Positions 4,159 to 62,156 of a stretch of DNA of 64,000 nucleotides are shown in pieces. The DNA lies in the NCBI GenBank assembly GCA_041645215.1, contig JBAZQK010000002.1, forward strand, positions 15,435 through 79,434, read 5' to 3'. Positions within the stretch are counted from its first letter, which is position 1. Each line of letters starts with the position of its first letter. This DNA comes from Patescibacteria group bacterium. Lineage in GTDB: Bacteria > Patescibacteriota > Patescibacteriia > Veblenbacterales > UBA10138. A program made the position numbers and the translations under genes. The notes beneath the pieces were generated by a model, which was not told where the DNA came from, did no database searches, and saw only the letters and a list, made by a program, of their open reading frames with translations.

Positions 4159-4186
4159 ATTCCTACATTCTGCAGAATGTAGGAAT
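4159..4186. promoter_or_regulatory. 28-bp perfect palindrome ATTCCTACATTCTGCAGAATGTAGGAAT, candidate operator upstream of the second ArsR-family gene
   Basis: Perfect dyad; core ACATTCTGCAGAATGT shared with 4524-4545. Confidence 0.45.
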
Positions 4187-4212
4187 AAATAAAATAGTGA
4201 TACAATGTACCA

Positions 4213-4512
4213 ATGACCACAAAACTAAAAACCGCTGAACAAATGGAACGTCACTTTAAGGGTATGGCCAATCACTACCGCATTGCGATACTTCTTTTGA
4301 TTGATAAAGAAAGTGGAATTACCGTTGAAGCTATTACTGAACATCTTAAAGCAAACTTCAAAACCATTTCACAACACACTCGCTATCTTATGAATGCCGG
4401 ACTTATCAAAAAACAGTACCAAGGGAGAATGGTCGCACACTATTTGTCGCCCTATGGCAAACACTTTGTCAGATTCATTAAGAACTTTCAGCGTTTAGGT
4501 AGTAAATACTAA
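4213..4512 (+). CDS. ArsR-family HTH transcriptional regulator (second paralogue)
   Basis: HTH-like HYRIAILLLIDKESGITVEAITEHLKANFKTISQHTRYL. Confidence 0.55.
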   Translation: MTTKLKTAEQMERHFKGMANHYRIAILLLIDKESGITVEAITEHLKANFKTISQHTRYLMNAGLIKKQYQGRMVAHYLSPYGKHFVRFIKNFQRLGSKY

Positions 4513-4523
4513 CTAACAACATT

Positions 4524-4545
4524 CTAACATTCTGCAGAATGTTAG
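4524..4545. promoter_or_regulatory. 22-bp perfect palindrome CTAACATTCTGCAGAATGTTAG immediately downstream of the second ArsR gene
   Basis: Same 16-bp core as the upstream palindrome; preceded by tandem AACATTCT AACATTCT. Confidence 0.45.
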
Positions 4546-15725: not shown

Positions 15726-15890
15726 TAGGACTTACGCGCTGGCCGCTTGCCGGGCTGGCGGAGCCCGACCCCGCAAGCGGCTTTGGCCAATTTCTTCGTT
15801 AAAACCTCTGCTTGGCGTTCATCCCGCCAGGGCGGGACTCGCTCCAATGCTCGGTTTTGCCTCGAACTTGGCGCAAACGCGTAAGTCCTA
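15726..15890 (-). mobile_element. Structured MITE copy C (TAGGACTTACG TIR family), 165 bp, 5-bp TSD TTACT (plus-strand AGTAA at 15721-15725 and 15891-15895)
   Basis: 13-bp perfect TIR TAGGACTTACGCG/CGCGTAAGTCCTA; ~85-90% identical to copies at 27400-27565 and 53753-53919 with compensatory substitutions. Confidence 0.75.
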
Positions 15891-26434: not shown

Positions 26435-26562
26435 GCGGCGTTAATAAAACTTGGAAGCCGTAACGGCTTACTCCACCGTAGTCCTTAAAAAAGGTGAAGG
26501 AAGGCCGGAAGCTGTGGGGTATTATGGCGTAGTCCCGCAAAGCGGGACGAAGACGGATAAAT

Positions 26563-26767
26563 CCCGTTACATTTCCACGGGGTATTAGACGGACGCGGAA
26601 ATTGACCCCGTTAGAGATGCGGAACAAAGTGTAATTTGTAGGATGTTAATGTGTGCGGAGCGTATCTTACTATATGTTTCAGTACTGAGTGAATCTCTAA
26701 CGGGGTGAATCTGAATTTGCTGCGGTATCCCCGCGGCCAGACCGCGGGGTTTTTAAAATGTAACGGG
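26563..26767. mobile_element. Nested palindromic element (copy E2): outer TIR CCCGTTAC/GTAACGGG with flanking ATAAA(T/A); inner element 26606-26705 with TIR CCCCGTTAGAGAT/ATCTCTAACGGGG
   Basis: Seen directly; same architecture as 52174-52343. Confidence 0.55.
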
Positions 26768-26984
26768 ATAAAACTATCGTACATTTTGCGACACAAAGGA
26801 TGTTACCGGCAAAGTAGTTTGAGTGTGTAATAAATATTATTGACATAAAAATAATCATAATTGGCCGCAGAATTAAAAAATGAAGCCGGTGAGTTGGTAT
26901 AGTAATTGCATGTACCTGTGATTACTTATTACCGATTTTCCCAATTCAATTTACCAAACAGGATTTTATTATTCTCCAGTTATT

Positions 26985-27186: not shown

Positions 27187-27399
27187 TAAAAAATGGAAAA
27201 ATTATGCAGTTTTATGACGAAGTCATAGCTATCTTCATACCCCTGAAATCAACCTCGGGCCATATACGAGGTTGGTTTTTTGATAATATAAGGCCGCGGG
27301 GCTAATTTAAGTGTAACCCCGACAAATAAAGTGTCTGCTAATTATTACACAAAAAACTGTCCGGTTTTATAAAAAGCCACGACTTTATTGGTTTATAAT

Positions 27400-27565
27400 T
27401 AGGACTTACGGGTTTGAGCCAAGTTCGAGGCAAAACCGAGCATTTGAGCGAGCCGTAGTAAAACTACGGTGAGCGAAAAGCGGAGGTTTTAACAAAGAAA
27501 TTGGCCAAAGCCGCTTGAGGGGTCGGGCTGCGCCCGCCCTGCAAGCGGCAAGCCCGTAAGTCCTA
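27400..27565 (+). mobile_element. Structured MITE copy A (TAGGACTTACG TIR family), 166 bp, 5-bp TSD ATAAT (27395-27399 and 27566-27570)
   Basis: 13-bp perfect TIR TAGGACTTACGGG/CCCGTAAGTCCTA; internal hairpin CCGTAG/CTACGG covaries with CCCGCC/GGCGGG in copies B and C. Confidence 0.8.
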
Positions 27566-27717
27566 ATAATAACAAAAACATCAATTATAATGGGAGTAGC
27601 CGCTATTTAGGGATAATAAGAGTTTAAGCGGTATTTGCCTGATTTTAAAGACTATGTTAAACTGAGTATAATATCCCAAACGCTCAGTTATTTATACTAT
27701 AGACAAATATAGGTCAT

Positions 27718-28203
27718 ATGCCAAACTCCCCTGCAATAAATAGCATGACTGATGAGGCTAAAGCCTGGTTAGCAGGTTTTATTGATGGTGAAGGTTATAT
27801 CGGTTTAACCTTTCAAATAAAAAAAGCAACACCAACCTCGGCCCGCACGCCTCGTTATCACCCTTATTTGATAATAGCTAATACCAATAAAGCGGTTATT
27901 GAATATATTCAGACCATTTTGGGTGTGGGCAGAGTTTATAATTTTTTTCCAAAAAATATAAAATTCAAAGGTGCTTATCAAATTAAGATTAGTCAGAACA
28001 ATGATTTGCAGGCCGTTTTAACAGCCATACTCCCCTATTTGCGGGTTAAGTCTGAACAAGCTCGTATAGTTTTGGATTTTTTAGCCAGACGAAAAGACAT
28101 TAAACCTATTACTAGCCGCGGTCACAGAGGCGCGACTTCATTTGGTGAAGCCGATAAGGCTTTATATCAACGTTTATTGGATTTAAATAAGAAAGGACCA
28201 TAA
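27718..28203 (+). CDS. LAGLIDADG homing endonuclease (single-motif, homodimer type)
   Basis: AWLAGFIDGEGYIGL motif; ~160 aa. Confidence 0.7.
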   Translation: MPNSPAINSMTDEAKAWLAGFIDGEGYIGLTFQIKKATPTSARTPRYHPYLIIANTNKAVIEYIQTILGVGRVYNFFPKNIKFKGAYQIKISQNNDLQAVLTAILPYLRVKSEQARIVLDFLARRKDIKPITSRGHRGATSFGEADKALYQRLLDLNKKGP

Positions 28204-28205
28204 AT

Positions 28206-29141
28206 ATGCTGCCGCACTTTGATGATTTTCTGCTTTCATTGCAGGTGAATAATTATTCTAAAGAGACGGTCTATAATTACGAGCGCGACCTTAAGGTGTT
28301 TGAATTTTTTTTGGTTAATGACATAAAATTGAAAAATTTTGCCAAAATTAATAAAAAAACCATAGAACTTTATAAGGCTTATTTGGCCTCCAGAGACCGT
28401 GAGACGGCGACTGGCAAAAAAAGTCATGGCCAACTAACAAGTTTTTCAACTAATAGATTTTTATCTTCTTTGCGTCGCTATCTTAAATACTTGATTGAAA
28501 TGGACCTGCCTACTCCCCTGCCGCCCGAGGCGGTTAAGCTGGTAAAGACTGAGCGAAAGCACCCGCAGGTGGCGGAATTCACTGAACTGGTGCGCTTAAT
28601 TGAATCACCAACTTGGTTAGAAAAAAATAAGGTAGTTGGTTTGCGCAATCGGGTGATGTTGGAGGTTTTATTTGCCACTGGTATGCGGATTTCCGAATTA
28701 ACCGGACTTAATCGGGTACAAATCGACGACAGCGGCCGTATATTTATAACGGGTAAGGGTAAAAAACAGCGCTTTGTTTATTTGACCGAGCGGGCCAAAA
28801 AATATTTGAATATGTATTTAGCTAAACGTCCAGATACACACCCGGCCCTATTTATTCCCTACCGGGGAGGGAATGCCGGTAAGAATAACAGACGTTTATC
28901 AACTAATTATTTACAAATGAAAATCAAACAATACCGCGAGACTTTGCGCATAAATGTGCCAACCTCGGCCCACTCCCTGCGTCATGGCTTTGCCACTTAT
29001 TTGGCGGAAAGCGGCGCTAATCCGGCAGCTATTCAAGTTTTACTCGGTCACGAATCGCTTGATACCACTACCCGTTATGTCCACGCCTCCGATAAATATG
29101 CCGAAAGTACGCATAAAAAATTTCATCCGTTAAAAACTTGA
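28206..29141 (+). CDS. Tyrosine site-specific recombinase (XerC/XerD-like)
   Basis: N-terminal SAM-like core-binding domain; catalytic box HSLRHGFATYLAESG...LGHESLDTTTRYVH. Confidence 0.8.
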   Translation: MLPHFDDFLLSLQVNNYSKETVYNYERDLKVFEFFLVNDIKLKNFAKINKKTIELYKAYLASRDRETATGKKSHGQLTSFSTNRFLSSLRRYLKYLIEMDLPTPLPPEAVKLVKTERKHPQVAEFTELVRLIESPTWLEKNKVVGLRNRVMLEVLFATGMRISELTGLNRVQIDDSGRIFITGKGKKQRFVYLTERAKKYLNMYLAKRPDTHPALFIPYRGGNAGKNNRRLSTNYLQMKIKQYRETLRINVPTSAHSLRHGFATYLAESGANPAAIQVLLGHESLDTTTRYVHASDKYAESTHKKFHPLKT

Positions 29142-43560: not shown

Positions 43561-43634
43561 GGAAGGTTTTTTCCTGCGAGCGTTCATTCTTTTTTGAGGA
43601 AGGTTTTTTCCTGCGAGCGTTCATTCTTTTTTAA
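43561..43634. repeat. Tandem 37-bp repeat x2 (GGAAGGTTTTTTCCTGCGAGCGTTCATTCTTTTTT) forming imperfect hairpins
   Basis: Seen directly; second unit overlaps the 3-prime end of the minus-strand methyltransferase gene. Confidence 0.6.
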
Positions 43635-44349
43635 TGATGGCGATATAAATTGATTTATCAGAATCAATAAAATTTCTGACTCTCCAACCAGTATTTTTCA
43701 AAATATTTTTCATTTGGTTTTTAGAAACAAGTAAGTAATCAAACCAATCTCCAATATATTTCTTGAATCTAATTCTAATGCGAAGTTGCCCAGGCATTCT
43801 TCCTCTTTTTTCGTTGAACTTATGATAAGAGAGGTGTACCGGATCGTCTGTTTTATAAACATCATTGCTTTCAGCGAGTATCAAGGCGTTAGAGCTGGTT
43901 ATTTTGTGAAGTTTCTTGAGTAAGGATTTGGCTTTCTTAAAACTACCAAATAAACCAAAGTTGTTGCCGAACATGATAACAGTATCAAAAGTTTTTGGTT
44001 TGAATGTGCCGATTTTTTCAATAGGTAAAACTTTGGCGTTCTTTACACCACGCTTTTTACAGACTTTTATAGCAAGTGGTGAATTGTCTATGGCAATCAC
44101 ATCAAAATTTCTTTTCTGAAGATAAAGAGAATTGCGTCCAGCCCCAGCACCGATATCAAGGATTTTACCTTTGGCTAACTTGATTGCTTGTTTTTCAATT
44201 TTCGGCCAATCTTTAAAATTCGCAAAATAAGCCGATGCACCTCCCGACAGACCAATGAAACCGTCATCTCTTTCAACGACTTCATAAGAATCTTTTTTGA
44301 GGAAGAATGCCCATACCTCTTGTCCGTAAGCATCTTTGTTTGTATCCAT
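43621..44349 (-). CDS. Class I SAM-dependent methyltransferase
   Basis: Motif I ILDIGAGAGRNSLYL. Confidence 0.7.
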   Translation of the reverse strand: MDTNKDAYGQEVWAFFLKKDSYEVVERDDGFIGLSGGASAYFANFKDWPKIEKQAIKLAKGKILDIGAGAGRNSLYLQKRNFDVIAIDNSPLAIKVCKKRGVKNAKVLPIEKIGTFKPKTFDTVIMFGNNFGLFGSFKKAKSLLKKLHKITSSNALILAESNDVYKTDDPVHLSYHKFNEKRGRMPGQLRIRIRFKKYIGDWFDYLLVSKNQMKNILKNTGWRVRNFIDSDKSIYIAIIKKE

Positions 44350-44372
44350 ATTGGTTTGATTATGACTGGGAT

Positions 44373-44768
44373 TTATTCCTTAAAAAGTTTTATCCAGCCT
44401 AATTTTAACCACAAAACTATTTCATCGTAGGATTGGACACTCTTATCAGGCATTTGCAAAAGTATCACTTCAATATTTTTATTATAAATCAAATTTTGAG
44501 CAATGCCAAAGCCTATTTCAGCAAAGGTTTCAGCGCCGATGTATCCGGTGATGGCGTTTTTATCTTCATTCATAACAAAAAGAATATCCGTTTCGGTTAT
44601 GTTTTTAAAAAATTCCGTATGCACCTTTGGATATTCTTCTAAGAAAGTTTTCTTGGGAACTGGCAATGGGTAGCCGGTAACTAAATAGCCATTATCTTCC
44701 CAAAACTTTTTCCAATGTTGAACTTTTTCTTGCGGTCCGGCGCTGCCGACAATAACAACTTTTTTCAT
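44373..44768 (-). CDS. LOG/SLOG/nucleoside 2-deoxyribosyltransferase-fold protein (short)
   Basis: VVIVGSAG N-terminal and ITGYIGAETFAEIGFGIAQ resembling the LOG PGGxGTxEE / NDT glycine-rich motifs. Confidence 0.4.
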   Translation of the reverse strand: MKKVVIVGSAGPQEKVQHWKKFWEDNGYLVTGYPLPVPKKTFLEEYPKVHTEFFKNITETDILFVMNEDKNAITGYIGAETFAEIGFGIAQNLIYNKNIEVILLQMPDKSVQSYDEIVLWLKLGWIKLFKE

Positions 44769-44826
44769 AATGAGTAATGATTGTAAAATAGTGTGATTTG
44801 AGCTGAAGACGAAAAGGCAAAAAACA

Positions 44827-45273
44827 TTACTTTAAAAAGCTATCATACAGTTCAAAAGCTTTTAAGCATTCGTTTTTTACATTAACGGGAATGTGTTCTT
44901 TGTTTAAATCATTTTTAGTAAACCACCCAAAATTCTTTAACTCATTATTTATTTTTAGTCGTTCTGGATTTATGGCCTTGCAAACATAATACAGCGAACA
45001 ATGGTCATGGTCGCCAACTGAATGGACATTTACATAAAAAGGCGTAGCCAGATTATATTTGACATTTCCTTCTTCGGGTAAATCACTGACGTTGAGAATT
45101 TCTACGTCAATTCCGATTTCTTCTTTAATCTCACGAAGCAAGGCCTGGTCAGGAGTTTCGTTTTCGTCAATATGACCTCCCACAGCCAGCCATAAATCCA
45201 AACTTTTATGGTGAATTAGTAAAACCTTGTTTTCATGAATAATATATCCTGTAACGACTAAATCCGTTTTCAT
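44827..45273 (-). CDS. NUDIX hydrolase
   Basis: Nudix box GGHIDENETPDQALLREIKEEIGI. Confidence 0.7.
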   Translation of the reverse strand: MKTDLVVTGYIIHENKVLLIHHKSLDLWLAVGGHIDENETPDQALLREIKEEIGIDVEILNVSDLPEEGNVKYNLATPFYVNVHSVGDHDHCSLYYVCKAINPERLKINNELKNFGWFTKNDLNKEHIPVNVKNECLKAFELYDSFLK

Positions 45274-45398
45274 ATTGTGGCTTGAGTCTAATATGTTAAA
45301 TTTTGATAAATTGACGTTGAGATAATTATCAGTATCAGAAATAAGATAATGTTTGTAATTGCCGGATTAAGGAATTTTTTCCAGTTCATAGGTTTAAT

Positions 45399-45659
45399 TT
45401 ATTGATAAATATCATGGTCGCCGACTGAATGAAAAAATACTGCGTCTTTGTCCTTGGAAAACTCAAAAATTATTCTATATTTATAGCCAATAGAAAAAGA
45501 TAAAAACCCACTTAACTTACCTTTAAGCTTGTGGGTTTTTAGTTTAGAATCAAAAGGATTTTGTCTAAATATCTTTTCCTGCTGTTCAGCGATATCTTTG
45601 ATATTGTCCGGCAGCCTTTTGTATTCCCGGGCGAATTTTGAACTATAGATTACCTCCAT
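45399..45659 (-). CDS. RelE/ParE-family toxin
   Basis: 86 aa; KTHKLKGKLSGF...YRIIFEF...VGDHDIY pattern typical of RelE/ParE. Confidence 0.6.
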   Translation of the reverse strand: MEVIYSSKFAREYKRLPDNIKDIAEQQEKIFRQNPFDSKLKTHKLKGKLSGFLSFSIGYKYRIIFEFSKDKDAVFFHSVGDHDIYQ

Positions 45660-45671
45660 AAAAGGCAGTGA

Positions 45672-45887
45672 TTATCTCAAAGCTTTTAAAGATTTTAAAA
45701 CCTTACCATTGCCGGAGTTAATTTCTTGACGGCTTTGGTTAAGCTCGCTTAAGAGCTTACCCTCTTGCCACTCTCTTAAAATATGGCGAAAAAATTCGCT
45801 GGTAGAGGAATAATTTCCGGTTTTGACCATGTCTTTTACGGTTTTAGCCATTGGGGATGGCAGTGAAATGTTAATTACTTTACGCAT
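45672..45887 (-). CDS. Antitoxin (RHH/ParD/RelB-like) partner of the RelE/ParE toxin
   Basis: 71-aa ORF directly upstream of the toxin; STSEFFRHILREW motif. Confidence 0.55.
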   Translation of the reverse strand: MRKVINISLPSPMAKTVKDMVKTGNYSSTSEFFRHILREWQEGKLLSELNQSRQEINSGNGKVLKSLKALR

Positions 45888-45995
45888 ATGTTTAAATATT
45901 AATTGTAATAGTTTGTATTACAATATTATCAAATCTTAAAAACATTGTCAAATGCTATAAAATAAGCGGCATTTTCTTTAACTGTATACGCTGTG

Positions 45996-46478
45996 TTAGG
46001 CGATGTTAATTTTACTTTTTATGATTTTTTCCTCTATTAATGATGTTCTGATTTTATTTACACCAGAGGATAAAAAAATTGTTTTAATTCCTGGAAATTT
46101 GCTTTCGACATTCTTTGCAATATCTTTTCTTCGTTTTATTTTGTCTTTTTCATTTGAAAAAACCAAAAAATTCGGTTTTATTTTCTTTAAATTTTCATCG
46201 TCATATAAGGCCCTATTTGTCACAAATACATAATCAACAGCTTTTAATCCTAATAATAATTCAGCACGTTGTTTTTCTGGAATTATAGGACGATGATTTC
46301 CTTTGGTTTTTTTAATAAATCTATCACCGTTAATTCCAATAACTAAAATATCGCCGAATTTTTTGGCTTTTTCAATAAAACGAAGGTGTCCTATGTGTAA
46401 AATGTCGAAACACCCACCCAATAAAACAATTTTTTTTAGTCTGTTCAGATCGTTACCTAGTATATCTAAAGAAGTCAT
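45996..46478 (-). CDS. Cytidylyl/adenylyltransferase (HxGH nucleotidyltransferase; RfaE domain II / TagD-like)
   Basis: LLGGCFDILHIGH motif; ~160 aa. Confidence 0.65.
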   Translation of the reverse strand: MTSLDILGNDLNRLKKIVLLGGCFDILHIGHLRFIEKAKKFGDILVIGINGDRFIKKTKGNHRPIIPEKQRAELLLGLKAVDYVFVTNRALYDDENLKKIKPNFLVFSNEKDKIKRRKDIAKNVESKFPGIKTIFLSSGVNKIRTSLIEEKIIKSKINIA

Positions 46479-46504
46479 AAAAAGTAAAATTAATTTCGTT
46501 TAAC

Positions 46505-46680
46505 GTTCCAGAATATGCGATATTTGCCATTGCTATAATATCGCGAAGCGGTAGCAGTGGCAAATATGGGTGTAGCGAGGTGCAACCGAGCGAAACCGCA
46601 TATTCTGTGTTAAGTGAGGCGTAGGCCGAGCCCGAGGGCAACGTCCCGAAGGGCTGGCGAGAGTTACAATTTTTTTCTTA
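46505..46680 (+). ncRNA. Candidate small structured RNA ending in an intrinsic terminator (nested inverted repeats, then hairpin plus T7)
   Basis: Stems CAGAATATGCG/CGCATATTCTG and ATATTTGCCATTGC/GCAGTGGCAAATAT; GC hairpin at 46624-46660 followed by TTTTTTT on plus strand only. Confidence 0.3.
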
Positions 46681-47131
46681 TAAAAGATTGAACGATATTT
46701 AACTCGAGATACTTTTTTTGTAAATCAGGGGGGAGATGTCGGAAATCCCCAATAGTATGTCGGCAGTTTTGGCCCTTACATTCACATTGAAGGGTCCAAT
46801 TATCTTCATCCATTGTTGTTGAATAATCATAAAAAATTTCTTGACCTGGTGAAATATCTTCAATTGCCACAAGAAACCGATCATCCTTAATACCGGCATT
46901 TGGCGAGCATGAATGGTTGACTAAAACACCAGGCTCTTGAATATCAATATACTCTGTTGACCCAATTTGAAGCGGACAACTTAATTTATCTAATGGTTTT
47001 TGCAGTGCCTGTTCAGGAGAGATAACTGGACCTGTAAATTCAAGCATGCACTCGCCTTTGAGTATTGGCTTTGTTGCAAATACACCTCTGCCAAAATTGC
47101 CGCTATCCATAATTTCAATTTTTCCCGACAT
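46664..47131 (-). CDS. SET-domain protein lysine methyltransferase
   Basis: NHSCSPN, EIFYDY and post-SET CECKGQNCRH motifs. Confidence 0.75.
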   Translation of the reverse strand: MSGKIEIMDSGNFGRGVFATKPILKGECMLEFTGPVISPEQALQKPLDKLSCPLQIGSTEYIDIQEPGVLVNHSCSPNAGIKDDRFLVAIEDISPGQEIFYDYSTTMDEDNWTLQCECKGQNCRHTIGDFRHLPPDLQKKYLELNIVQSFIRKKL

Positions 47132-47186
47132 CGTTTTAATGGTTAAAATTACTGGCGAATTTTGCCTAACTGGTTGCTATGCGAAC

Positions 47187-47468
47187 CCCGTTAGAAATTT
47201 TGAAGAAAAGATTTTAGTCTATTTTTCAAATATCGCCTTCCCATCCCCGATTTTAAATACTTTTCTCAACTTTTGGCATCAGTCTCATTTATACATGCTT
47301 CATAGTAGACAAGCTTCCATGGTCTTTTCCCTTTGGTGGAACGATTGATTCCTTTATTATGTTCAGAAAATCTTTTCTTCAAATTATTGGTATAGCCAAT
47401 ATACAAGAGTAATCTTTTAAACTTTAAAGAAGATAAACGCAACAAAATGGCATATAATTTCTAACGGG
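47187..47468. mobile_element. CCCGTTAG-TIR element (copy E3) carrying a degenerate GIY-YIG ORF; TIR CCCGTTAGAAATT/AATTTCTAACGGG; 6-bp direct repeat GCGAAC (47181-47186 and 47469-47474)
   Basis: Seen directly. Confidence 0.65.
47266..47452 (-). pseudogene. Truncated GIY-YIG nuclease-domain ORF inside element E3 (no ATG, lacks C-terminal helix)
   Basis: Translation ...LLLYIGYTNNLKKRFSEHNKGINRSTKGKRPWKLVYYEA... contains the GIY-YIG core; opens right after a TAG inside the TIR. Confidence 0.5.
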
Positions 47469-47545
47469 GCGAACTTAAGTTAATTATTTTGCAAAAATTG
47501 TCCTGCCTAAATTCTATAATAAACGCCGAATTAAGCAAACACCAA

Positions 47546-49054
47546 TCAATCAACGGCTTGTTTCTTTTCCGTCACCCAAAAACCCAGATATTTGCCCAGC
47601 ATCAGGCGGGTTTGGGCGTCAGTCGCCGGTATAGCGCCAAATACGATCATAGTAATAGGAAAAAGGAACCACTGCATTACCATGGGAATGTATTTGTACC
47701 AGGGTTGTTTAGTGTCGCGCGACGGCAGCATAGCGGTTGACAAAATCGCGCTTAACACCAAACCTATCATGGCCAGCGTCATTATCCACTGCAACGCCAT
47801 GGGAGCATTATGGGCGAGCAAGTTGGATTTAACCGCGTCATCGGCGGTCCAGAGCGGCAAACGACCAAGAATAAAAATAATTAACGGCGCCGTGGCCCAA
47901 GAATAAACCCCTTCCAATTGATTCCATAAATAGCGAATTTTCCGATTAAAAGGAATGGTGCGCGAGCGCCAAAAATGCCAGGCCATGTAGGGAAAATTTT
48001 CTACGCCGTAGGCCCAGCGACGTTGCTGTTTGTACTGATTGACAACGCTGCGCCACAAAGATCCGGCATAAACCGTATCCATTGAAATTGGTATGTACAT
48101 GGGGGTTACGCGATAGTTTCCGTTGTAACGTATAAAGCATTGCAAAAAAATCCGCGAATCCTCGGTCACAATGTCATTTTGCCAAAAACCGACATCTACC
48201 AGGGCGGTGAACGGCATGGAGTGCGAGGAAAATGTAAATAATCTTTCGGGCCGCGCCAAGTCCGTCAACAGCCAAAACGTGGTTGAGTTGGCCACAATTC
48301 GGTTAATGGCCGGCGATTCCCAAATATTATTATTATAAACGGCTAACGGCTGATAGCTGGTATGCAACGGGTCGGGCACGGTCAGATATTTATAGGTTAA
48401 ATAAGCGAAATATTGAGGATGGGCGCAGGAATCAACGTCAAAAGTTGATACCACCACATTTTTGTACGGTATTTTTAAATTATCAATTAATTTTTGGGCT
48501 TGATGCCCGGCCCAATTAGTATTGGCCCCCTTGCCGGCCATTTCGCCGATAATGTTGCCCGGATGGAGCGTAATTAAAAAATAACCAAAGCGATCGCCGT
48601 ATTGTTGTTTGATGCTGGTTGAGATTAATTCAAAATTTGCTTGATCACGCTCCTCGCCGGCTAACACCACAATTAATTTATCAAGCGGATACTTGATTTG
48701 AGTTAAAGATTCTATTGATTTAACCACGACTTCATAAGGCTCGCGAAAAGTGGGCAGAAAAATTAAGTGGTAAATGTCATTATAATGCGGAAGTACTTTC
48801 ACTTTTTCAAACCAATCAGCGCGCAGAGTTACGCGATATTGTTTCCAGGAAGATAACAGGTAAATAATCAGATAAGCCACTCGGAGCAGCCAATATAAAT
48901 CAAATATTATGATTACGTATATCGCCCACAATGGTTTAACAAATGATAAAACAACGGCTCCGATAAGAGTCGTCCATACTAAAACTCCGGGTATAATCTC
49001 TAAAAAGCGGTAAACCTTTTTTTTGTCCAAATTATCAATATAATCACGCAGCAT
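47546..49054 (-). CDS. Membrane-embedded family 2 glycosyltransferase of the processive type (cellulose/hyaluronan-synthase-like)
   Basis: DxD region (STFDVDS) and QQRRW (QxxRW) motif flanked by TM helices. Confidence 0.65.
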   Translation of the reverse strand: MLRDYIDNLDKKKVYRFLEIIPGVLVWTTLIGAVVLSFVKPLWAIYVIIIFDLYWLLRVAYLIIYLLSSWKQYRVTLRADWFEKVKVLPHYNDIYHLIFLPTFREPYEVVVKSIESLTQIKYPLDKLIVVLAGEERDQANFELISTSIKQQYGDRFGYFLITLHPGNIIGEMAGKGANTNWAGHQAQKLIDNLKIPYKNVVVSTFDVDSCAHPQYFAYLTYKYLTVPDPLHTSYQPLAVYNNNIWESPAINRIVANSTTFWLLTDLARPERLFTFSSHSMPFTALVDVGFWQNDIVTEDSRIFLQCFIRYNGNYRVTPMYIPISMDTVYAGSLWRSVVNQYKQQRRWAYGVENFPYMAWHFWRSRTIPFNRKIRYLWNQLEGVYSWATAPLIIFILGRLPLWTADDAVKSNLLAHNAPMALQWIMTLAMIGLVLSAILSTAMLPSRDTKQPWYKYIPMVMQWFLFPITMIVFGAIPATDAQTRLMLGKYLGFWVTEKKQAVD

Positions 49055-49070
49055 AATAAGTTTCCGAATT

Positions 49071-49508
49071 TTAGTTTGGTTCCGGTCGGTAGATAAAAGT
49101 TAACACCGCCACCGCCGCAAAAACCAAGAAACCCCACACGCAGGCCGGCACCGCCAACATCGAAAAGGTTTCCCAATAGTAGGCGCCTTTAGTTATAATG
49201 GGCAAGCCGATTTCACGCCAGCCAACCCAGCCCGAGAATATTACCCCGGCCACGGCAAATAATCGCATTAGCCAAGAGCCATAGTGATGGTTGATTGTTT
49301 GCTTTAAAGTTAAAAATGACAGTACGGTCAAAATGGTAAATAAGGCTAAACCATAAGGGCAGGGCGAGTAACCTAAAATTTTAAAACCGACGCAAGAAAA
49401 TATACCCGGTTGGGTCGCGGGAGCGATAAATTGGCGCGCCGTCACCAAGCCGGCAAACAATGTTCCCAGCAGCGATAAGTAAAAAATAGCTCGAATTTTA
49501 TTAAGCAT
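49071..49508 (-). CDS. Small polytopic membrane protein with paired cysteines (DsbB/VKOR-like?)
   Basis: 4 TM; Cys pair in FSCVGFKILGYSPCPYG. Confidence 0.3.
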   Translation of the reverse strand: MLNKIRAIFYLSLLGTLFAGLVTARQFIAPATQPGIFSCVGFKILGYSPCPYGLALFTILTVLSFLTLKQTINHHYGSWLMRLFAVAGVIFSGWVGWREIGLPIITKGAYYWETFSMLAVPACVWGFLVFAAVAVLTFIYRPEPN

Positions 49509-49522
49509 AATTGAACAATTCC

Positions 49523-50218
49523 CTATTTAAGTTCAATTGCTTGAATTACAATATCCGACAACGGATGATCATTGGCATTGGTGGGGGCCGATTCAATTTC
49601 AGCCAGAATTTCTTGTCCTTCAATCAACTCCCCAAAATTAGTGTGTTTGCCGTCTAACCACGGTGTCGCGGCGGCGGTAACAATAAAAAATTGACTGCCA
49701 TTGGTGTTGGGGCCGGCGTTCGCCATGGCAAGTGAACCTCTAACCAGTTTGTTATTATTAATTTCATCGGCAAATTGGTAGCCCGGACCGCCTTGGCCGT
49801 CATTTGACCAATCATCGTCCTTAGAATTTGGGTCGCCGGTTTGAACCATAAAACCCTTAATAACACGATGAAATTTAACCCCATTATAAAAACCGCTGTT
49901 AGCCAATTTAACAAAATTGGCCACCGTGTTGGGTGATGCGGGGTAAAATTTAAAAACCAAATCGCCCCGATTGGTTTTTATGACGGCTTTGGTTACTGGC
50001 GGCATTTGGTAATTGTTTCCAGCGGCGGCGGACTCGGTTGGATTGGCGGCGGCGGGATTAACCGGGGTATTTTTTAGCGTTGACTTAGAGGCTTGGGCGG
50101 CGGCATCAAATTCAGTCATAGTTGGTTGGATAGAGGGCGAACGAAAGATACAACCGCTTAGGGTTAATACGAAAAATATTAGTGCGATTACGATTGAAAA
50201 TTTATTAATCTTGCGCAT
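49523..50218 (-). CDS. Cyclophilin-type peptidyl-prolyl cis-trans isomerase (secreted/lipoprotein)
   Basis: [18 protein letters not shown] ... [18 protein letters not shown]. Confidence 0.85.
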
Positions 50219-50343
50219 AATTGGATCAAATAATATCTAATTACCCGTCTGCCCACGGTCCCGCTACGGCGGAACCCCGGCCTTTTGGCGGGGTGTGACC
50301 GGCAGGCCCCGCTCAAGCTTAGGCAGGCAGGGATTTAGAAATT

Positions 50344-51948
50344 CTAATACATTTCGTCCTTTTTGTCTTTAAGGAATTGAAACCAGTCTTCAATAATTTT
50401 TAAAGCGGTTTTGAAAGGAACTTCAAATAAAAAGTCAAGCACAAAAACAAAAACATTGACTCGGTCAAAAGTTTGCGATAACCATTTACCGACGGCTATA
50501 ACCGGCACCGCAAAAAAATCAAGCAAAAAAGCCACTATGGTTTCACGGCTGCGCACCACTTTGAGCTGGCGGGCGTGCTGACGCAGAGAAATTCCAAAAA
50601 AACTTACCAGACTGACAAAGAATATAAATATTATGCCCGAGATAAAATTAAAGTCTAACCGCCATAACAAATAAATCACTCCTCCAAACGATCCCACAAA
50701 GGTCGCAACGTATAAAAAGGTATAAGCAATTTTTTTTACCAATCCCATCTTAGGCTTGGTTACCGGCTGGGGCCGGTAAAAGTTCGGCTCGTAACCCAAA
50801 ACTAATTCGTTGACACCCATGGCTACCATATCGGCATCAGCCTGACTGGGAGATTTTATCATTACCGTTATGATACCCATTAAAACTGGCGGCACCAGCA
50901 AGTTGATAATCACTGATAAATAGTTAATTGATCCCAGCATTAACCGTTCATAAGGTATCTCCAACAGCAAAGCTAAAACCATTTTAGTCAAAAAAATGTA
51001 TATTATAGCGTGCCAACCGCGCCGGCGCAGCTTACGACTGGTCGTTTTCCAATATTTCTGGTAGGTTTGTCTAACCGTTGACTCTAATTGATGGGCGTTG
51101 GTGAGAAGGCCGCGCCAATTATCCAGGCGGTCTCGTAAAATATCCTGCAAAATGATTACCGGCACCAATAGCCGGCGGACACGAGTTAAAAGTCGCCGGC
51201 CCAGCTCGTGGTCGTTTAAATTTTTAAAATTTAATAAAATCTCATCTACTGAATTGGCCAACGCCGGCACCGCCACCGCCGGTTCATTGTTAAACCAATA
51301 TGGGTAGTAATGGACTAATAGGTAATAATTGATAATATCGCTGTCGGCGCGCTCCAACGCCCGTTGAATATCAATTATTAATTGAACATTCTTGGGCTCG
51401 GCCTCGGTGTCGTTATCAGGCAAAATCAGTACGTCTTTTAATATTTTATAGGCAAAAGAAATGTAGGCGTTGCGAAAGTCTGGCGATACTAATTGATTAT
51501 CACATTCAACGGCCGCCAGTCCCAAAAGCTGTTCGCGCCATTTAGGTATGTTTGACTTATGGTCAGCCAGCAAATTGAACAATGCGTAATATTTACTTAA
51601 GATTGCCGCCACGGCCGTAATTTTAGTTTCGGGTATTGCGTTGTTGGCCAGATAGCGCGCTAAAATAAGTTCGCGTATTAATGCTTGGGCGGCGATTTGC
51701 GGCTGGTGATTGAATTGCGGCAGCCAAAATTTACGTTTCAAAAAACGTCTGATGGCATTTTTACGCAATAAAAATTCGTCTTTGTAATCAATAAAATTAC
51801 GAATCTTTTCGTAGGCAAAAGCCGGTAAGCTGGTTAGCTCGGAAACGCGGATTTTGGTTAGGTCTTCAGGATAATGACTAAGTTTGCTCGCCTCTTCCAA
51901 CTCATGAACTAAATCGCTTGTAACTTTCGTCAGATTTGACTGGGGCAT
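50344..51948 (-). CDS. Hypothetical protein (534 aa) with C-terminal polytopic membrane region
   Basis: ORF; helical N-domain; 5-6 TM at C-terminus. Confidence 0.4.
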   Translation of the reverse strand: MPQSNLTKVTSDLVHELEEASKLSHYPEDLTKIRVSELTSLPAFAYEKIRNFIDYKDEFLLRKNAIRRFLKRKFWLPQFNHQPQIAAQALIRELILARYLANNAIPETKITAVAAILSKYYALFNLLADHKSNIPKWREQLLGLAAVECDNQLVSPDFRNAYISFAYKILKDVLILPDNDTEAEPKNVQLIIDIQRALERADSDIINYYLLVHYYPYWFNNEPAVAVPALANSVDEILLNFKNLNDHELGRRLLTRVRRLLVPVIILQDILRDRLDNWRGLLTNAHQLESTVRQTYQKYWKTTSRKLRRRGWHAIIYIFLTKMVLALLLEIPYERLMLGSINYLSVIINLLVPPVLMGIITVMIKSPSQADADMVAMGVNELVLGYEPNFYRPQPVTKPKMGLVKKIAYTFLYVATFVGSFGGVIYLLWRLDFNFISGIIFIFFVSLVSFFGISLRQHARQLKVVRSRETIVAFLLDFFAVPVIAVGKWLSQTFDRVNVFVFVLDFLFEVPFKTALKIIEDWFQFLKDKKDEMY

Positions 51949-52173
51949 ATTTAAGTAAACCGCTATAACCTGATTAAATATTTAAGACTGCCAAAGTTTA
52001 ACATTTTTTAATATTTTTGGCAAGGCTAAATTGGTTTACCGCCTAAATAACCCTGAATTACGAAATACTTTTTCCCGTCATTCTTCAGCCGATTCCGCCA
52101 GCCGGCGGACAGCGGGAGGTATCCGCCGCCGTTCGCCGCAGCGAGCGGCGGCGGATAAAAAAAGACTATTTAC

Positions 52174-52343
52174 CCCGTTACACCCAGAATGCCCCACCCT
52201 TCAGGGTGGGGATGAACCCCGTTAGAAGTAATTCCAATGGCTGTCGGGATACTCCACCACCGGTGGAGACTTCTAACGGGGTGAATGGGAAATTAAAAAT
52301 CTTCCCCAAAAATGCCCCGTCCTTCAGGACGGGGCGTAACGGG
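52174..52343. mobile_element. Nested palindromic element (copy E4): outer TIR CCCGTTAC/GTAACGGG with flanking TTTAC; inner 65-bp element 52217-52281 with TIR CCCCGTTAGAAGT/ACTTCTAACGGGG
   Basis: Seen directly; arms carry hairpins GCCCCACCCTTCAGGGTGGGG and GCCCCGTCCTTCAGGACGGGGC. Confidence 0.6.
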
Positions 52344-53724
52344 GTTTACTAAGAGCGGCGCTGTAAATAACATTGGGGGCTTTTAGTAAATCATAGATTA
52401 AATTGTATTTTACAATATAGTAGGCGGTTTCGTTTTTAAGAGCGTAGCGATTGACTAGATTGTAAAATTGATCGGCGGCGGTCGCATGTTGTTTGTAAAT
52501 TTTAAGCTGCTGTTTGAGTTTAGCTTTTTCCAAGGTGGTTATTTGTTTGCCAGTCAGCTGTTGTTTTAATGATTTGACTCCGGCTAAATACGTGTTTTTT
52601 TCTTGTTGATAGAATTTTTTTAAAGTAACTCGGCTGGCTGACCAGTTATCCCCCCACTTTTCAAAAGCTTTAATGACACGGGCTAATCCACCGTTATAAC
52701 TAGCGGCCAAATAGGCGCCCAGTTTTTTATCGTCGGCCGCGCCGGCGTTCTTAATTGTCTGCGGCAAATGACTAAGGATATCGTCTAAATAGCCGATTTC
52801 CGCCTTAATCGCGTTATAAGGGTCGGTCATCCCCTGTTCAAAATTAGGATTAAGAACCAGTTCGGGGCGCCGCTTGACCATCAGTTTATAAGTTGATGGT
52901 ATAAACTGGGCCAGGCCGCGGGCCGAGGCGGTAGACTTGGAATAAGCAAAGGAAAAATGCCGGTTAGTCGCCAGCGTTACAAAAAAACGATCTAAAAATT
53001 CGGCCGGCTGACTGCTGGTGCGGCTGATATTGTCAGCATGCTCAATCGCGATAATTGATTTTACCAAAATTGGATCTATGACATCAATCAATAATTTATC
53101 GGGGTAAGCTTGCGATTTCACCCCTAAGGCGGCGATTTCGTCATAAACCGCGGTAATTTTAGTGGCAAAAAAACGCTTGCCCTCGTCAATAATCGCCGCG
53201 GTTTTTAAATAATCATGATAGGGCACGTAAACGGTGTTTTGTAATTTATATTGGGAGCGCGTTTTAGCGCCAAGGCTAAGGTAAATTGGATGAATAACCG
53301 CCACCACCAAAGCCTTGGGTTCGCCCGCCACTATATACTGTGAATTCACGCCGTTGTCATACTTAACTTTGATGTCATAGTTCCGGTTGTCATTAAGCGT
53401 TACCCGCCGACCTGATTTTAAACCGTTGACAAATACGATTTGATCTGCGACGGGCTGCCACAAAGCTAAAGTAACCGGTATGGGAGTGTTTTTACTTTTG
53501 ACCACAACCGGTTTAAATTTTGGATTGGTCAATTCATCGTTAACCCGGGCTTGCAATGTCATTTTGGCCGATAATATGGCTTGATATAACAAATTATCCG
53601 GCTCAACTTGCGCTGGCTTTGAATCAAGAATGTCTGAATTGTCAGCTTTAACCGCCAGCGGGCTAAGTGCTAACAAACCAATTGCCCAGCTTAGGCCGGC
53701 TATTTTTAAACTATGTAACATCAT
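52324..53724 (-). CDS. Lytic transglycosylase (SLT domain), secreted
   Basis: Signal peptide; SASARGLAQFIPSTY and AYNGG motifs. Confidence 0.7.
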   Translation of the reverse strand: MMLHSLKIAGLSWAIGLLALSPLAVKADNSDILDSKPAQVEPDNLLYQAILSAKMTLQARVNDELTNPKFKPVVVKSKNTPIPVTLALWQPVADQIVFVNGLKSGRRVTLNDNRNYDIKVKYDNGVNSQYIVAGEPKALVVAVIHPIYLSLGAKTRSQYKLQNTVYVPYHDYLKTAAIIDEGKRFFATKITAVYDEIAALGVKSQAYPDKLLIDVIDPILVKSIIAIEHADNISRTSSQPAEFLDRFFVTLATNRHFSFAYSKSTASARGLAQFIPSTYKLMVKRRPELVLNPNFEQGMTDPYNAIKAEIGYLDDILSHLPQTIKNAGAADDKKLGAYLAASYNGGLARVIKAFEKWGDNWSASRVTLKKFYQQEKNTYLAGVKSLKQQLTGKQITTLEKAKLKQQLKIYKQHATAADQFYNLVNRYALKNETAYYIVKYNLIYDLLKAPNVIYSAALSKPRYAPS

Positions 53725-53752: not shown

Positions 53753-53919
53753 TAGGACTTACGGGGTTGAGCCAAGTTCGAGGCAAAACCGAGCAAGTGG
53801 TACGAGTCCCGCCATGGCGGGATGAACGAAAAGCGGAGGTTTTAACGAAGAAATTAGCCAAAGCCGCTTGCGGGGTCGTCCCTGCGCCAGCCCTGCAAGC
53901 GGCAAGCGCGTAAGTCCTA
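53753..53919 (+). mobile_element. Structured MITE copy B (TAGGACTTACG TIR family), 167 bp, 5-bp TSD ATAAG (53748-53752 and 53920-53924)
   Basis: TIR TAGGACTTACG/CGTAAGTCCTA; internal hairpin CCCGCC/GGCGGG. Confidence 0.8.
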
Positions 53920-58030: not shown

Positions 58031-58304
58031 AGCGGGATTATAGCAAAATGAAACATATTTACAACCCCGATGTAACCCGACGTAACATTGGGGTATCTGA
58101 TTTTCATTCTCCCAAGCTGTCCGCCCTCGTCCCGCTTAGCGGGACTTCCGCGGATTATGCTCCACGTCATTCATCCCCGCCGAATCGGCGGGGTATTCTA
58201 GCGAAAAATTCCGAGCTTGGCTAAGGGTTGACTTATTTAAATGTTGTGCTAAACTAGTACAAAATAAAAAAAGTATTATTTAAAACTGAATTAAGAGGCA
58301 AACC

Positions 58305-61497: not shown

Positions 61498-61673
61498 CTA
61501 GCGGACGGGGTAAGTCAACTCATGATTACCGCGTCTCCCACACAAGGCTCGGGGGCTTGGATTCGAACCCCCGCAGTAGTCCCGCGGTGCGGGACACTAC
61601 GGGGCAAGCATGATTACCGCGTCCACCCCGCCACAGGCGGGGCAAGGCGCTCGCGTCCTATTCACCCCGCCAA

Positions 61674-62012
61674 TTATATCTGGCTTCTGTTAAAAACTGG
61701 GGGACATGGATTCGAACCATGATTACCGCGTCCAGAGCGCGGCGTCCTACCATTAGACGATCCCCCAGTTTTTAACAGAAACTTTTTAAAGGCGTTACCA
61801 CTATGCCAACTTTTAATTTGTTTTTCTCTTTGACGGGCATCTGTATAGCTTAAGTATTTTTCCGTATAAATCAAGTGCCATGGTCTAAATAATTTTGTCG
61901 ACGTAACTAAACCTTTATTATGTCTAGTTAAACGTAACTTGGGTTCTAACTTAGTTATTCCTATATAGTACCTACCAAAATTATTTCGTAGTATATATAA
62001 ATGACAAATCAT
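61674..62012 (-). CDS. Stand-alone small GIY-YIG nuclease (YhbQ-like); ORF has no stop before reading through the downstream tRNA-Gln
   Basis: YILRNNFGRYYIGITKLEPKLRLTRHNKG...RPWHLIYTEKY...REKQIKSW; domain ends ~61772, C-terminal 30 codons overlap the tRNA. Confidence 0.55.
   Translation of the reverse strand: MICHLYILRNNFGRYYIGITKLEPKLRLTRHNKGLVTSTKLFRPWHLIYTEKYLSYTDARQREKQIKSWHSGNAFKKFLLKTGGSSNGRTPRSGRGNHGSNPCPPVFNRSQI
61698..61767 (-). tRNA. tRNA-Gln (anticodon CUG), no encoded CCA; 13-bp leader/trailer helix
   Basis: Manual fold of reverse complement; anticodon stem CCGCG/CGCGG loop CTCTGGA; flanks TTCTGTTAAAAAC / GTTTTTAACAGAA complementary. Confidence 0.85.
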
Positions 62013-62156
62013 ATAATTGGCGGGACAAGTTAGACCTGTCCCGCTAAGCGGGACGATCTCCCAACACTACCAAAAATTTTAAAAAATGACGCCATAACTA
62101 AAATTAGTGCACCAAATCAATAACGACGCTTATTGTAAATGTTCGCCTATATAAAA

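Follow-up and report, generated by a model that had tools for sequence, protein, structure and literature searches.

Very small inverted-repeat elements in Patescibacteria and other lineages, and a ~280-bp GIY-YIG nuclease unit as their probable parent form

A 64,000-nt stretch of a Patescibacteria contig (JBAZQK010000002.1; called the window below, with positions of this stretch used throughout) contains short elements with palindromic ends, one of which, at 47.2 kb, encloses the remains of a gene for a GIY-YIG nuclease. The locus raises the question of whether such elements are mobile and, if they are, which enzyme moves them. Our answer, to which we assign a probability of about 0.6, is that these loci form one family of very small cut-and-insert mobile elements that are moved by their own nuclease. 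The parts of this reading differ in strength. That we are dealing with a mobile inverted-repeat element that makes a 4-bp duplication is close to certain, and the GIY-YIG unit is very probably the parent form; that the nuclease itself is the mobilising enzyme is, as far as sequences can tell, somewhat better than an even bet. The ends of the family (family 1) are 13-14-bp inverted repeats with the core YCCCGTTAGAR...YTCTAACGGGR, and the full form is ~280 bp long with one ~85-residue GIY-YIG gene of the Slx1/UPF0213 branch. The gene starts a few bases inside the left end and stops in or just past the right end.

The original prediction, made from the letters of the window alone, had described palindrome-ended elements at four loci, and these proved to be real. 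The sequence CCCGTTAS has 12 exact matches in the window (3.53 expected; 12 were reached in 0 of 100 shuffles), and all 12 fall into six convergent pairs, of which shuffled windows contain 0.015 on average. The pairs correspond to six copies, whose arms are exact inverted repeats of 10-14 bp according to an exact-match scan. The loci had been placed correctly, while the true termini, YCCCGTTA...TAACGGGR, lie one base outward of where the ends had been drawn. Flanking direct repeats are present as claimed; their true length is 4 bp (5 bp in the copy referred to below as A) and not 5-7 bp, the longer repeats (GTTTCAC, GCGAAC, TTTAC) having been read because the terminal C/G of the inverted repeat was counted in. 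Four copies have an exact 4-bp duplication, copy A has one of 5 bp, and in one copy (B inner) the duplication is imperfect.

The copy at 47.2 kb is a decayed gene-bearing unit of 284 bp on the minus strand (47186-47469), with 14-bp arms CCCCGTTAGAAATT at 47186-47199 and 47456-47469 and a CGAA target duplication on the left (47182-47185) and on the right (47470-47473). Its frame fills the element, running from an ATG at 47453-47451, just inside the left arm, to a TAA at 47193-47191, inside the right arm, and is broken by a 1-nt deletion near 47405 and by an in-frame TGA at 47268-47266. After repair of both lesions, the frame reaches 63 bits with Pfam PF01541 (GIY-YIG), for which the cut-off is 22.6, in agreement with the degenerate GIY-YIG frame noticed earlier. 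By its sequence, the copy is a pseudogene of an 87-residue Slx1/UPF0213-type GIY-YIG nuclease. A search for a longer copy with an intact GIY-YIG open reading frame (ORF) had been proposed, and intact genes with the same ends exist: among 5.8 billion proteins we found intact 87-residue relatives, 84-85% identical, and at all 13 loci encoding them (L002-L014) the gene is framed by CCCCGTTAGAAATT ends and a TTCG tetramer. The TTCG of the coding strand is the same tetramer as the window's CGAA. At the nucleotide level, the 47.2 kb unit and its intact counterpart in L008 are 90.1% identical.

A scan covering one genome per species retrieved more than 561 relatives, and 80 loci were kept for the survey. 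They belong mainly to Patescibacteria, with representatives in Omnitrophota, Planctomycetota, Proteobacteria, Desulfobacterota, Nitrospirota, Clostridia, relatives of Bacteroidota and one Woesearchaeote. Of the 83 genes at these loci, about 70 (54 under the strict pattern) lie between inverted repeats that share the family-1 core, the units being 275-312 bp long, and a profile search of 1.84 billion cluster representatives returned 4,499 clusters (50% identity) at E <= 1e-10. Counting peptide footprints of the ends among the 150 best cluster representatives gave 18/150; the pattern was too crude and is not relied on. Element sizes are bimodal, 41-214 bp and 275-314 bp. Identical 4-bp flanks were found in 44 of 93 distinct elements compared to 6.8 expected by permutation (maximum 17 in 2000), so that the flanking repeats exceed chance across many copies, as had been anticipated. 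The duplicated tetramers vary, TGAA and TTTA/TAAA being favoured; read outward, both flanks begin with T and have A at positions 3-4, i.e., a symmetric T-N-N-A preference.

Short copies occur near units at 6.3 per 100 kb, while in a control of 734 kb of related candidate phyla radiation (CPR) DNA their density is 0.14 per 100 kb, a difference of ~46x (Fisher P = 1.3e-5). The control yielded a single short copy, and it comes from the only control locus with two GIY-YIG matches. The distribution of copies is patchy and lineage-specific, with six in the 64 kb window and one in 734 kb of related DNA. Neither a scan of viral contigs with the end-pair pattern nor a protein search of PLSDB plasmids gave a single match, and there is therefore no evidence for a phage or plasmid vehicle. 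The PADLOC defence and PHROGs phage libraries revealed generic homing-endonuclease similarity only.

Comparative genomics had been suggested as a source of empty sites, and related loci yielded three filled/empty pairs resolved to the base. In the first pair, a 104-bp non-coding copy is present in three of the loci with 87-residue relatives and missing from four otherwise collinear loci; the filled site reads CTC-TAAA-element-TAAA-TATTC and the empty one CTC-TAAA-TATTC. The alignment of this copy to the 3' third of the gene-bearing unit shows that it arose from the unit by deletion. In the second pair, a 97-bp copy with duplicated TTTA interrupts a tyrosine-recombinase ORF that is whole in the empty loci. 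The third pair involves a gene-bearing unit (L184, Candidatus Lloydbacteria lineage), which is located between DUF268 and methyltransferase genes with TGAA duplicated; these genes are immediate neighbours in three sister lineages. The proposal of a family of miniature inverted-repeat transposable elements (MITEs) with a GIY-YIG progenitor is supported by the ends that intact genes share, by their framing across phyla, by the excess of 4-bp duplications, by the filled and empty sites, by the deletion derivative and by the density of short copies near units.

Tyrosine-recombinase genes are hit repeatedly by family-1 units and MITEs, at various positions of the catalytic region (L015, L021, L041, L051, L067; L002/L003/L006), and removing the element and one tetramer restores the reading frame. 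We considered the recombinase as a fixed partner gene and rejected this, since it is a repeated insertion target instead. The insertions may be tolerated there, such genes being themselves carried by mobile DNA, or they may point to a functional link.

A host ORF of >=80 codons begins at the right junction of 31 of 57 units, compared to 15% at random positions, and one ends at the left junction of 12 of 57 (1.6% when positions are random). The host start codon (A-TGAA, where the hyphen marks the junction) is often hit. The left duplication then supplies the ATG of the unit's own ORF, with A-TGAA-TCCCGTTAGA being read as ATG AAT CCC GTT AGA (MNPVR). At ends of the T type, the terminal A and the duplicated TGAA make ATGA, and the TGA stop of the unit therefore overlaps the rebuilt host start. 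The filled/empty pair of L184 displays this rebuilding of the start codon base by base. Given the landing on a start codon and its rebuilding, we infer that the unit is read as an extra, coupled cistron with little harm to the host gene. Since the ends are translated, many database proteins begin with MNPVR and end with LSLTG. Gene callers also extend ORFs through ends or tRNA (P0005, P0032, P0038, P0061, P0110, P0121-P0135 and others), and public proteins carry tails from translated repeat or tRNA sequence: MNPVR..., ...LSLTG, ...KISNGV and ...AGSSNGRT...GSNPSPAAL.

Units in tandem arrays (L089, L029, L025) share a single tetramer, and 16 of 93 insertions adjoin end-like sequence, compared to ~1-3% in controls. 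The 5' end of tRNA-Pro is another target (L039 (3255), L052 (3493), L085, L092); there, the right end, ...AACGGG(G/C), takes the place of the first five bases of the tRNA and restores them, and in L052 three successive hits are found at the same spot. Taken together, the arrays with a shared tetramer, the tRNA-Pro hits and the end-like neighbours point to an enzyme that reads the end and cuts just outside of it. Adjacency to tRNA as a general rule for family 1 was rejected, being true of only the few loci just named.

The family proteins have 84-95 residues and consist of the catalytic core only, with no joined DNA-binding domain. The catalytic residues (the Tyr of GIY, the Tyr of YIG, Arg, His and Glu) are intact, Y7, Y18, G20, R28, H32 and E64 being invariant across 31 relatives, and the ORF is under purifying selection, with a median ratio of non-synonymous to synonymous substitution rates (dN/dS) of 0.10 and a maximum of 0.19. 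The sequence profile matches UPF0213 proteins (1zg2, 1ywl) and Slx1; the predicted structure (pLDDT, the predicted local distance difference test, 91) has its best PDB matches in 1zg2 and Slx1, with TM (template modelling) scores of 0.62-0.68, and I-TevI and UvrC are far weaker fold matches than Slx1. No known class of transposase (DDE, DEDD, HUH, serine, tyrosine, Cas1) is encoded: the GIY-YIG ORF is the sole one and leaves no room for another. A gene for a Y1-HUH RAYT, the transposase of the repetitive extragenic palindrome (REP)/RAYT system, is absent both between and beside the ends. Beyond the invariant core, the two arms co-vary, with a value of 0.72 within a unit and 0.54 between units.

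How such a protein could move its unit may be pictured as follows. The nuclease, probably as a dimer, would recognise the conserved ends, which might be extruded as a hairpin or cruciform; because Slx1 cuts branched DNA, this form of recognition is a reasonable guess by analogy. It would bind both ends and cut at their outer edge. A 4-nt staggered cut would then be made at a T-N-N-A target, preferably in sequence resembling an element end, an example of an unoccupied target under this model being ATGAA-TCCGCTAAAA. Host ligation and repair would complete the joint and leave the 4-bp duplication.

The alternative that survives best, which we consider unlikely, is a conventional transposon family, in which an unlinked transposase (e.g., of the DDE type) moves both MITEs and ~280-bp units and the GIY-YIG gene is a passenger. 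Terminal inverted repeats with a short duplication of fixed length are the signature of DDE transposases, and some of the observations that weigh against a driving nuclease speak for an enzyme acting in trans. GIY-YIG enzymes hydrolyse DNA, and to our knowledge none transposes or joins DNA strands. Gene-bearing units look fixed in populations, those of P0110 and P0120 each occupying one site across 20-22 contigs. The window holds five MITEs without a live nuclease gene, its one family-1 gene being dead. Further points tell against the nuclease as the mover. An identical unit at two sites within one genome was never found when P0110 and P0120 were checked, and a perfect duplication is kept in only 47% of elements. 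The window copies have no base-level empty sites because their nearest relatives, reached via a neighbouring glycosyltransferase, are too diverged (72-74% protein identity); in those relatives the gene order is kept and no element is present. The protein is a bare catalytic domain, with no obvious means of reading a 13-bp end. Ends and protein are correlated (Mantel r = 0.57), but physical linkage alone could bring this about, and the right arm overlaps coding sequence, so that part of its conservation may be protein constraint.

Several observations speak against the unlinked transposase. In 1.25 Mb of element-rich DNA, the two ends of a pair are never further apart than 420 bp, with the exception of one shell around a tandem pair; these ends were found on neither another gene nor a longer element; and an all-against-all comparison of flanking ORFs at the 80 loci revealed no recurrent partner gene. 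The exact end-ORF-end form, with start and stop within the ends, is kept across distant phyla, and the ORF is under purifying selection. Moreover, one MITE derives from a unit, and the density of MITEs tracks the presence of units.

Homing is less probable still. In this scenario the nuclease cuts unoccupied sites, recombinational repair copies the unit into them, and the ends serve expression or RNA/DNA structure. It draws on the fact that GIY-YIG nucleases are classical homing endonucleases, on the resemblance of some targets to the element's own end, and on a second cassette in the window that fits homing well. This cassette (family 2; 61666-62024, minus strand) has exact 14-bp arms CCCGCCAATTATAT and an intact-looking 82-residue GIY-YIG ORF whose frame continues into tRNA-Gln(ctg) (61696-61768). 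The cassette is located within the D-loop of an older tRNA-Gln gene, with the 5' fragment of that gene on one side, the 3' fragment on the other and no target duplication. The suggestion that this second GIY-YIG gene might lie within termini similar to those of family 1 did not hold, its ends being different. The layout, CCCCGCCAA(A/T)TT-ORF-tRNA-Gln-AA(A/T)TTGGCGGGG, is common to the window (61666-62024) and loci L175-L183, and all 15 family-2 homologues read into translated tRNA, most of them going on into the translated right arm. Family 2 looks like a homing cassette that has one target and brings along a substitute for the gene into which it inserts. Family 1, in contrast, occupies many unrelated sites with differing duplicated tetramers and no shared flanking homology; non-coding copies of 41-130 bp have spread with the same duplication; and the protein is devoid of the DNA-binding domains of homing enzymes. 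Because the targets are many and duplicated, the idea of a GIY-YIG homing cassette framed by palindromes, offered earlier as an alternative, is unfit for family 1 and applies to the second gene.

The weakest explanation is that the palindromes do not move, serve the host as terminators, REP-like sites or structured RNA, and only happen to flank a small repair nuclease gene. In its favour are terminator-like hairpins within some copies and a 2006 superfamily survey (PMC1564403), which regards the standalone Slx1-like proteins of prokaryotes as minimal enzymes of the repair type that are mostly inherited vertically. It is contradicted by the three filled/empty pairs with exact 4-bp duplications, by the insertion that disrupts a recombinase ORF, by the patchy, lineage-specific distribution and by the lack of any Rfam family match, and we give it almost no weight.

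Returning to the family as a set of mobile elements moved by their own nuclease, the 47.2 kb copy is the dead full form, and the other five copies of the window are non-coding derivatives, i.e., MITEs. Copy A (209-308, 100 bp) has arms CCCCGTTAGAAGC, two GC hairpins inside, an unoccupied GGGGATGAATG site and TTTCA on both sides (204-208 and 309-313). The outer shell of copy B (26562-26768, 207 bp) has arms TCCCGTTACATTT, a TAAA duplication (26558-26561 and 26769-26772) and, in its right part, a terminator-like hairpin CCCCGCGGCCAGACCGCGGGGTTTTT. Nested 44 nt into this shell is B inner (26606-26705, 100 bp; arms CCCCGTTAGAGAT), whose flanks, TTGA and TGAA, match imperfectly. The outer shell of copy C (52173-52344, 172 bp) has arms CCCCGTTAC and a TTTA duplication (52169-52172 and 52345-52348); its right end provides the last codons and the stop of an SLT-domain ORF on the minus strand (52324-53724). 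C inner (52217-52281, 65 bp; arms CCCCGTTAGAAGT) lies at GGGGA-TGAA of the outer shell, with TGAA duplicated. Both nestings had been recognised in the original prediction. The uninterrupted GGGGATGAATG of copy A and the sequence GGGGATGAA-inner-TGAATG of copy C constitute a paralogous filled/empty pair within the window.

Folding of the GC hairpins inside the window copies agreed with their earlier description as small internal hairpins, and the hairpin module that had been said to recur elsewhere was found at 58160-58195 on the minus strand, as an isolated CCCCGCCGAATCGGCGGGG followed by ATGAATG; it matches the module in copy A and has no element ends around it. At the Rfam gathering score the window contains two tRNAs only, so the elements are not explained by any RNA family; an E-value scan of 46900-52600 gave one match, with 24 bits compared to 88 required.

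The dead GIY-YIG unit is located at the edge of a low-GC stretch (~43600-47500; 0.34-0.38 compared to ~0.43), which holds a SET-domain gene as well as genes for a methyltransferase, a NUDIX protein, a YafQ/ParE-type toxin and a cytidylyltransferase. This stretch may be an acquired island. Within it, an exact 19-bp inverted repeat TTAATTTTACTTTTTATGA at 46006-46493, with nested repeats inside, spans a whole cytidylyltransferase-like ORF (45996-46478), and the same upstream-plus-ATG sequence points inward from both of its ends.

Several observations concern the surroundings of family 2. The tRNA-Gln(ttg) locus at ~1267-1560 is a decayed version of the family-2 arrangement, with the old 5' tRNA fragment GGCTGGGGGATAGTCTAA, the 3' end of the family-2 ORF AAAGTTTCTGTTAAAAACTG, an intact tRNA and hairpin-split 3' remnants in this order. 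At loci L176, L177 and L183 (~2024-2307 of these loci), a third GIY-YIG gene, encoding 86 residues, lies ~170 nt downstream of the family-2 cassette and has no recognisable inverted ends. GC hairpins of the form YCCCG...CGGGR are enriched in the window (9 compared to ~0.5 in shuffles; 26533, 26729, 61383, 61580, 61626, 63795 and copies A and C). Hairpins of the CCCCGCC-loop-GGCGGGG type riddle the old tRNA-Gln fragments; with their CTTG/TGAA flanks, they look like end-only remnants of the family-2 cassette.

Other repeats of the window belong to neither family. A third repeat family of 165-170 bp (15726-15890, 27398-27567 and 53753-53919) has 11-bp inverted ends TAGGACTTACG, 5-bp flank duplications (AGTAA, ATAAT, ATAAG), a TCCCGCC...GGCGGGA mini-hairpin in two copies and no Rfam match, and is probably another MITE. 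One TAGGACTTACG element and copy B are located just upstream of a gene pair (27718-29141) in which a LAGLIDADG endonuclease ORF (27718-28203) directly precedes a Xer-like tyrosine recombinase (28206-29141). At 4165-4542, a 16-bp palindrome ACATTCTGCAGAATGT is present on both sides of a 99-residue ArsR-type helix-turn-helix ORF (4213-4512), and the two palindromes may be operator sites.

In its most complete form, our picture is of a ~280-bp autonomous transposon that has a Slx1-like nuclease of ~85 residues as its sole protein, leaves ligation to the host, inserts at start codons and is present in hundreds of species of many bacterial phyla and in at least one archaeon; we would put this at even odds. 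If the nuclease drives movement, it would represent a new class of transposase enzyme, the size floor of autonomous elements would fall to ~280 bp, and this would be the smallest self-sufficient DNA transposon. It would offer a testable account of the many tiny genes annotated as 'GIY-YIG nuclease family protein' in uncultured bacteria, and also of the unexplained GIY-YIG insertions in CPR rRNA genes (PMC11270868). The parasitic design, in which a start codon is landed on, used and rebuilt for the host, deserves attention, as does the systematic annotation artefact by which database proteins carry translated ends or tRNA. A nuclease of this small size that prefers particular ends and targets may also be of practical interest. 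In the literature, with most subscription journals and ISfinder outside our coverage, neither these ends nor a GIY-YIG transposon turned up, and this widespread family of very small GIY-YIG elements appears to be undescribed.

Among known systems, the short copies most resemble bacterial MITEs such as Correia of Neisseria, Nezha of cyanobacteria and RUP of pneumococcus, which are likewise short (40-210 bp) and non-coding, have inverted ends and a short duplication, form hairpins, are intergenic, nested or in tandem, and have expanded in particular lineages. Known MITEs derive from insertion sequences with DDE-type transposases, whereas here the sole coding relative with the same ends is the 280-bp GIY-YIG unit. 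In their minimal, single-gene design, IS200/IS605 elements (~0.7 kb, with a HUH/Y1 TnpA of ~150 residues) are comparable, and they also have a very small enzyme, end hairpins and a tetranucleotide target. They lack the terminal inverted repeats and the duplication that the GIY-YIG unit has; the latter is also under half their size, and its protein has an unrelated fold. IS30, the IS3 family and piggyBac (the duplication of the last being 4 bp) are known to insert beside existing ends, with tandem units sharing a spacer of duplication length, but their movement depends on DDE transposases and strand-transfer chemistry.

GIY-YIG homing endonucleases (I-TevI, the Seg proteins of phage T4) are selfish one-gene GIY-YIG elements too, and some of the targets seen here resemble the element boundary as theirs do. 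They differ in having added DNA-binding domains (~250 residues), one cognate site, no duplication and no inverted ends. Slx1 and UPF0213 proteins (PDB 1zg2, 1ywl, 4xlg, 6sei, 7cq2) are the best match in sequence and fold and share the minimal GIY-YIG core, and branched DNA, which Slx1 cuts, is the form that inverted ends would take if extruded. Slx1 works with Slx4 in genome maintenance, and neither Slx1 nor UPF0213 has been reported as mobile or framed by inverted repeats. GIY-YIG genes are among those horizontally transferred from Patescibacteria according to a 2025 study (PMC12455944). A precedent comes from the same host group: Tsurumaki et al. (2024) described GIY-YIG-encoding, non-intron insertions at scattered sites of CPR rRNA genes and judged them to be non-homing, with no mention of inverted ends or target duplication and no mechanism proposed (PMC11270868). 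Judged by that description, a GIY-YIG ORF in a short non-intron insertion, they are very likely the same kind of unit as the one whose remains lie at 47.2 kb.

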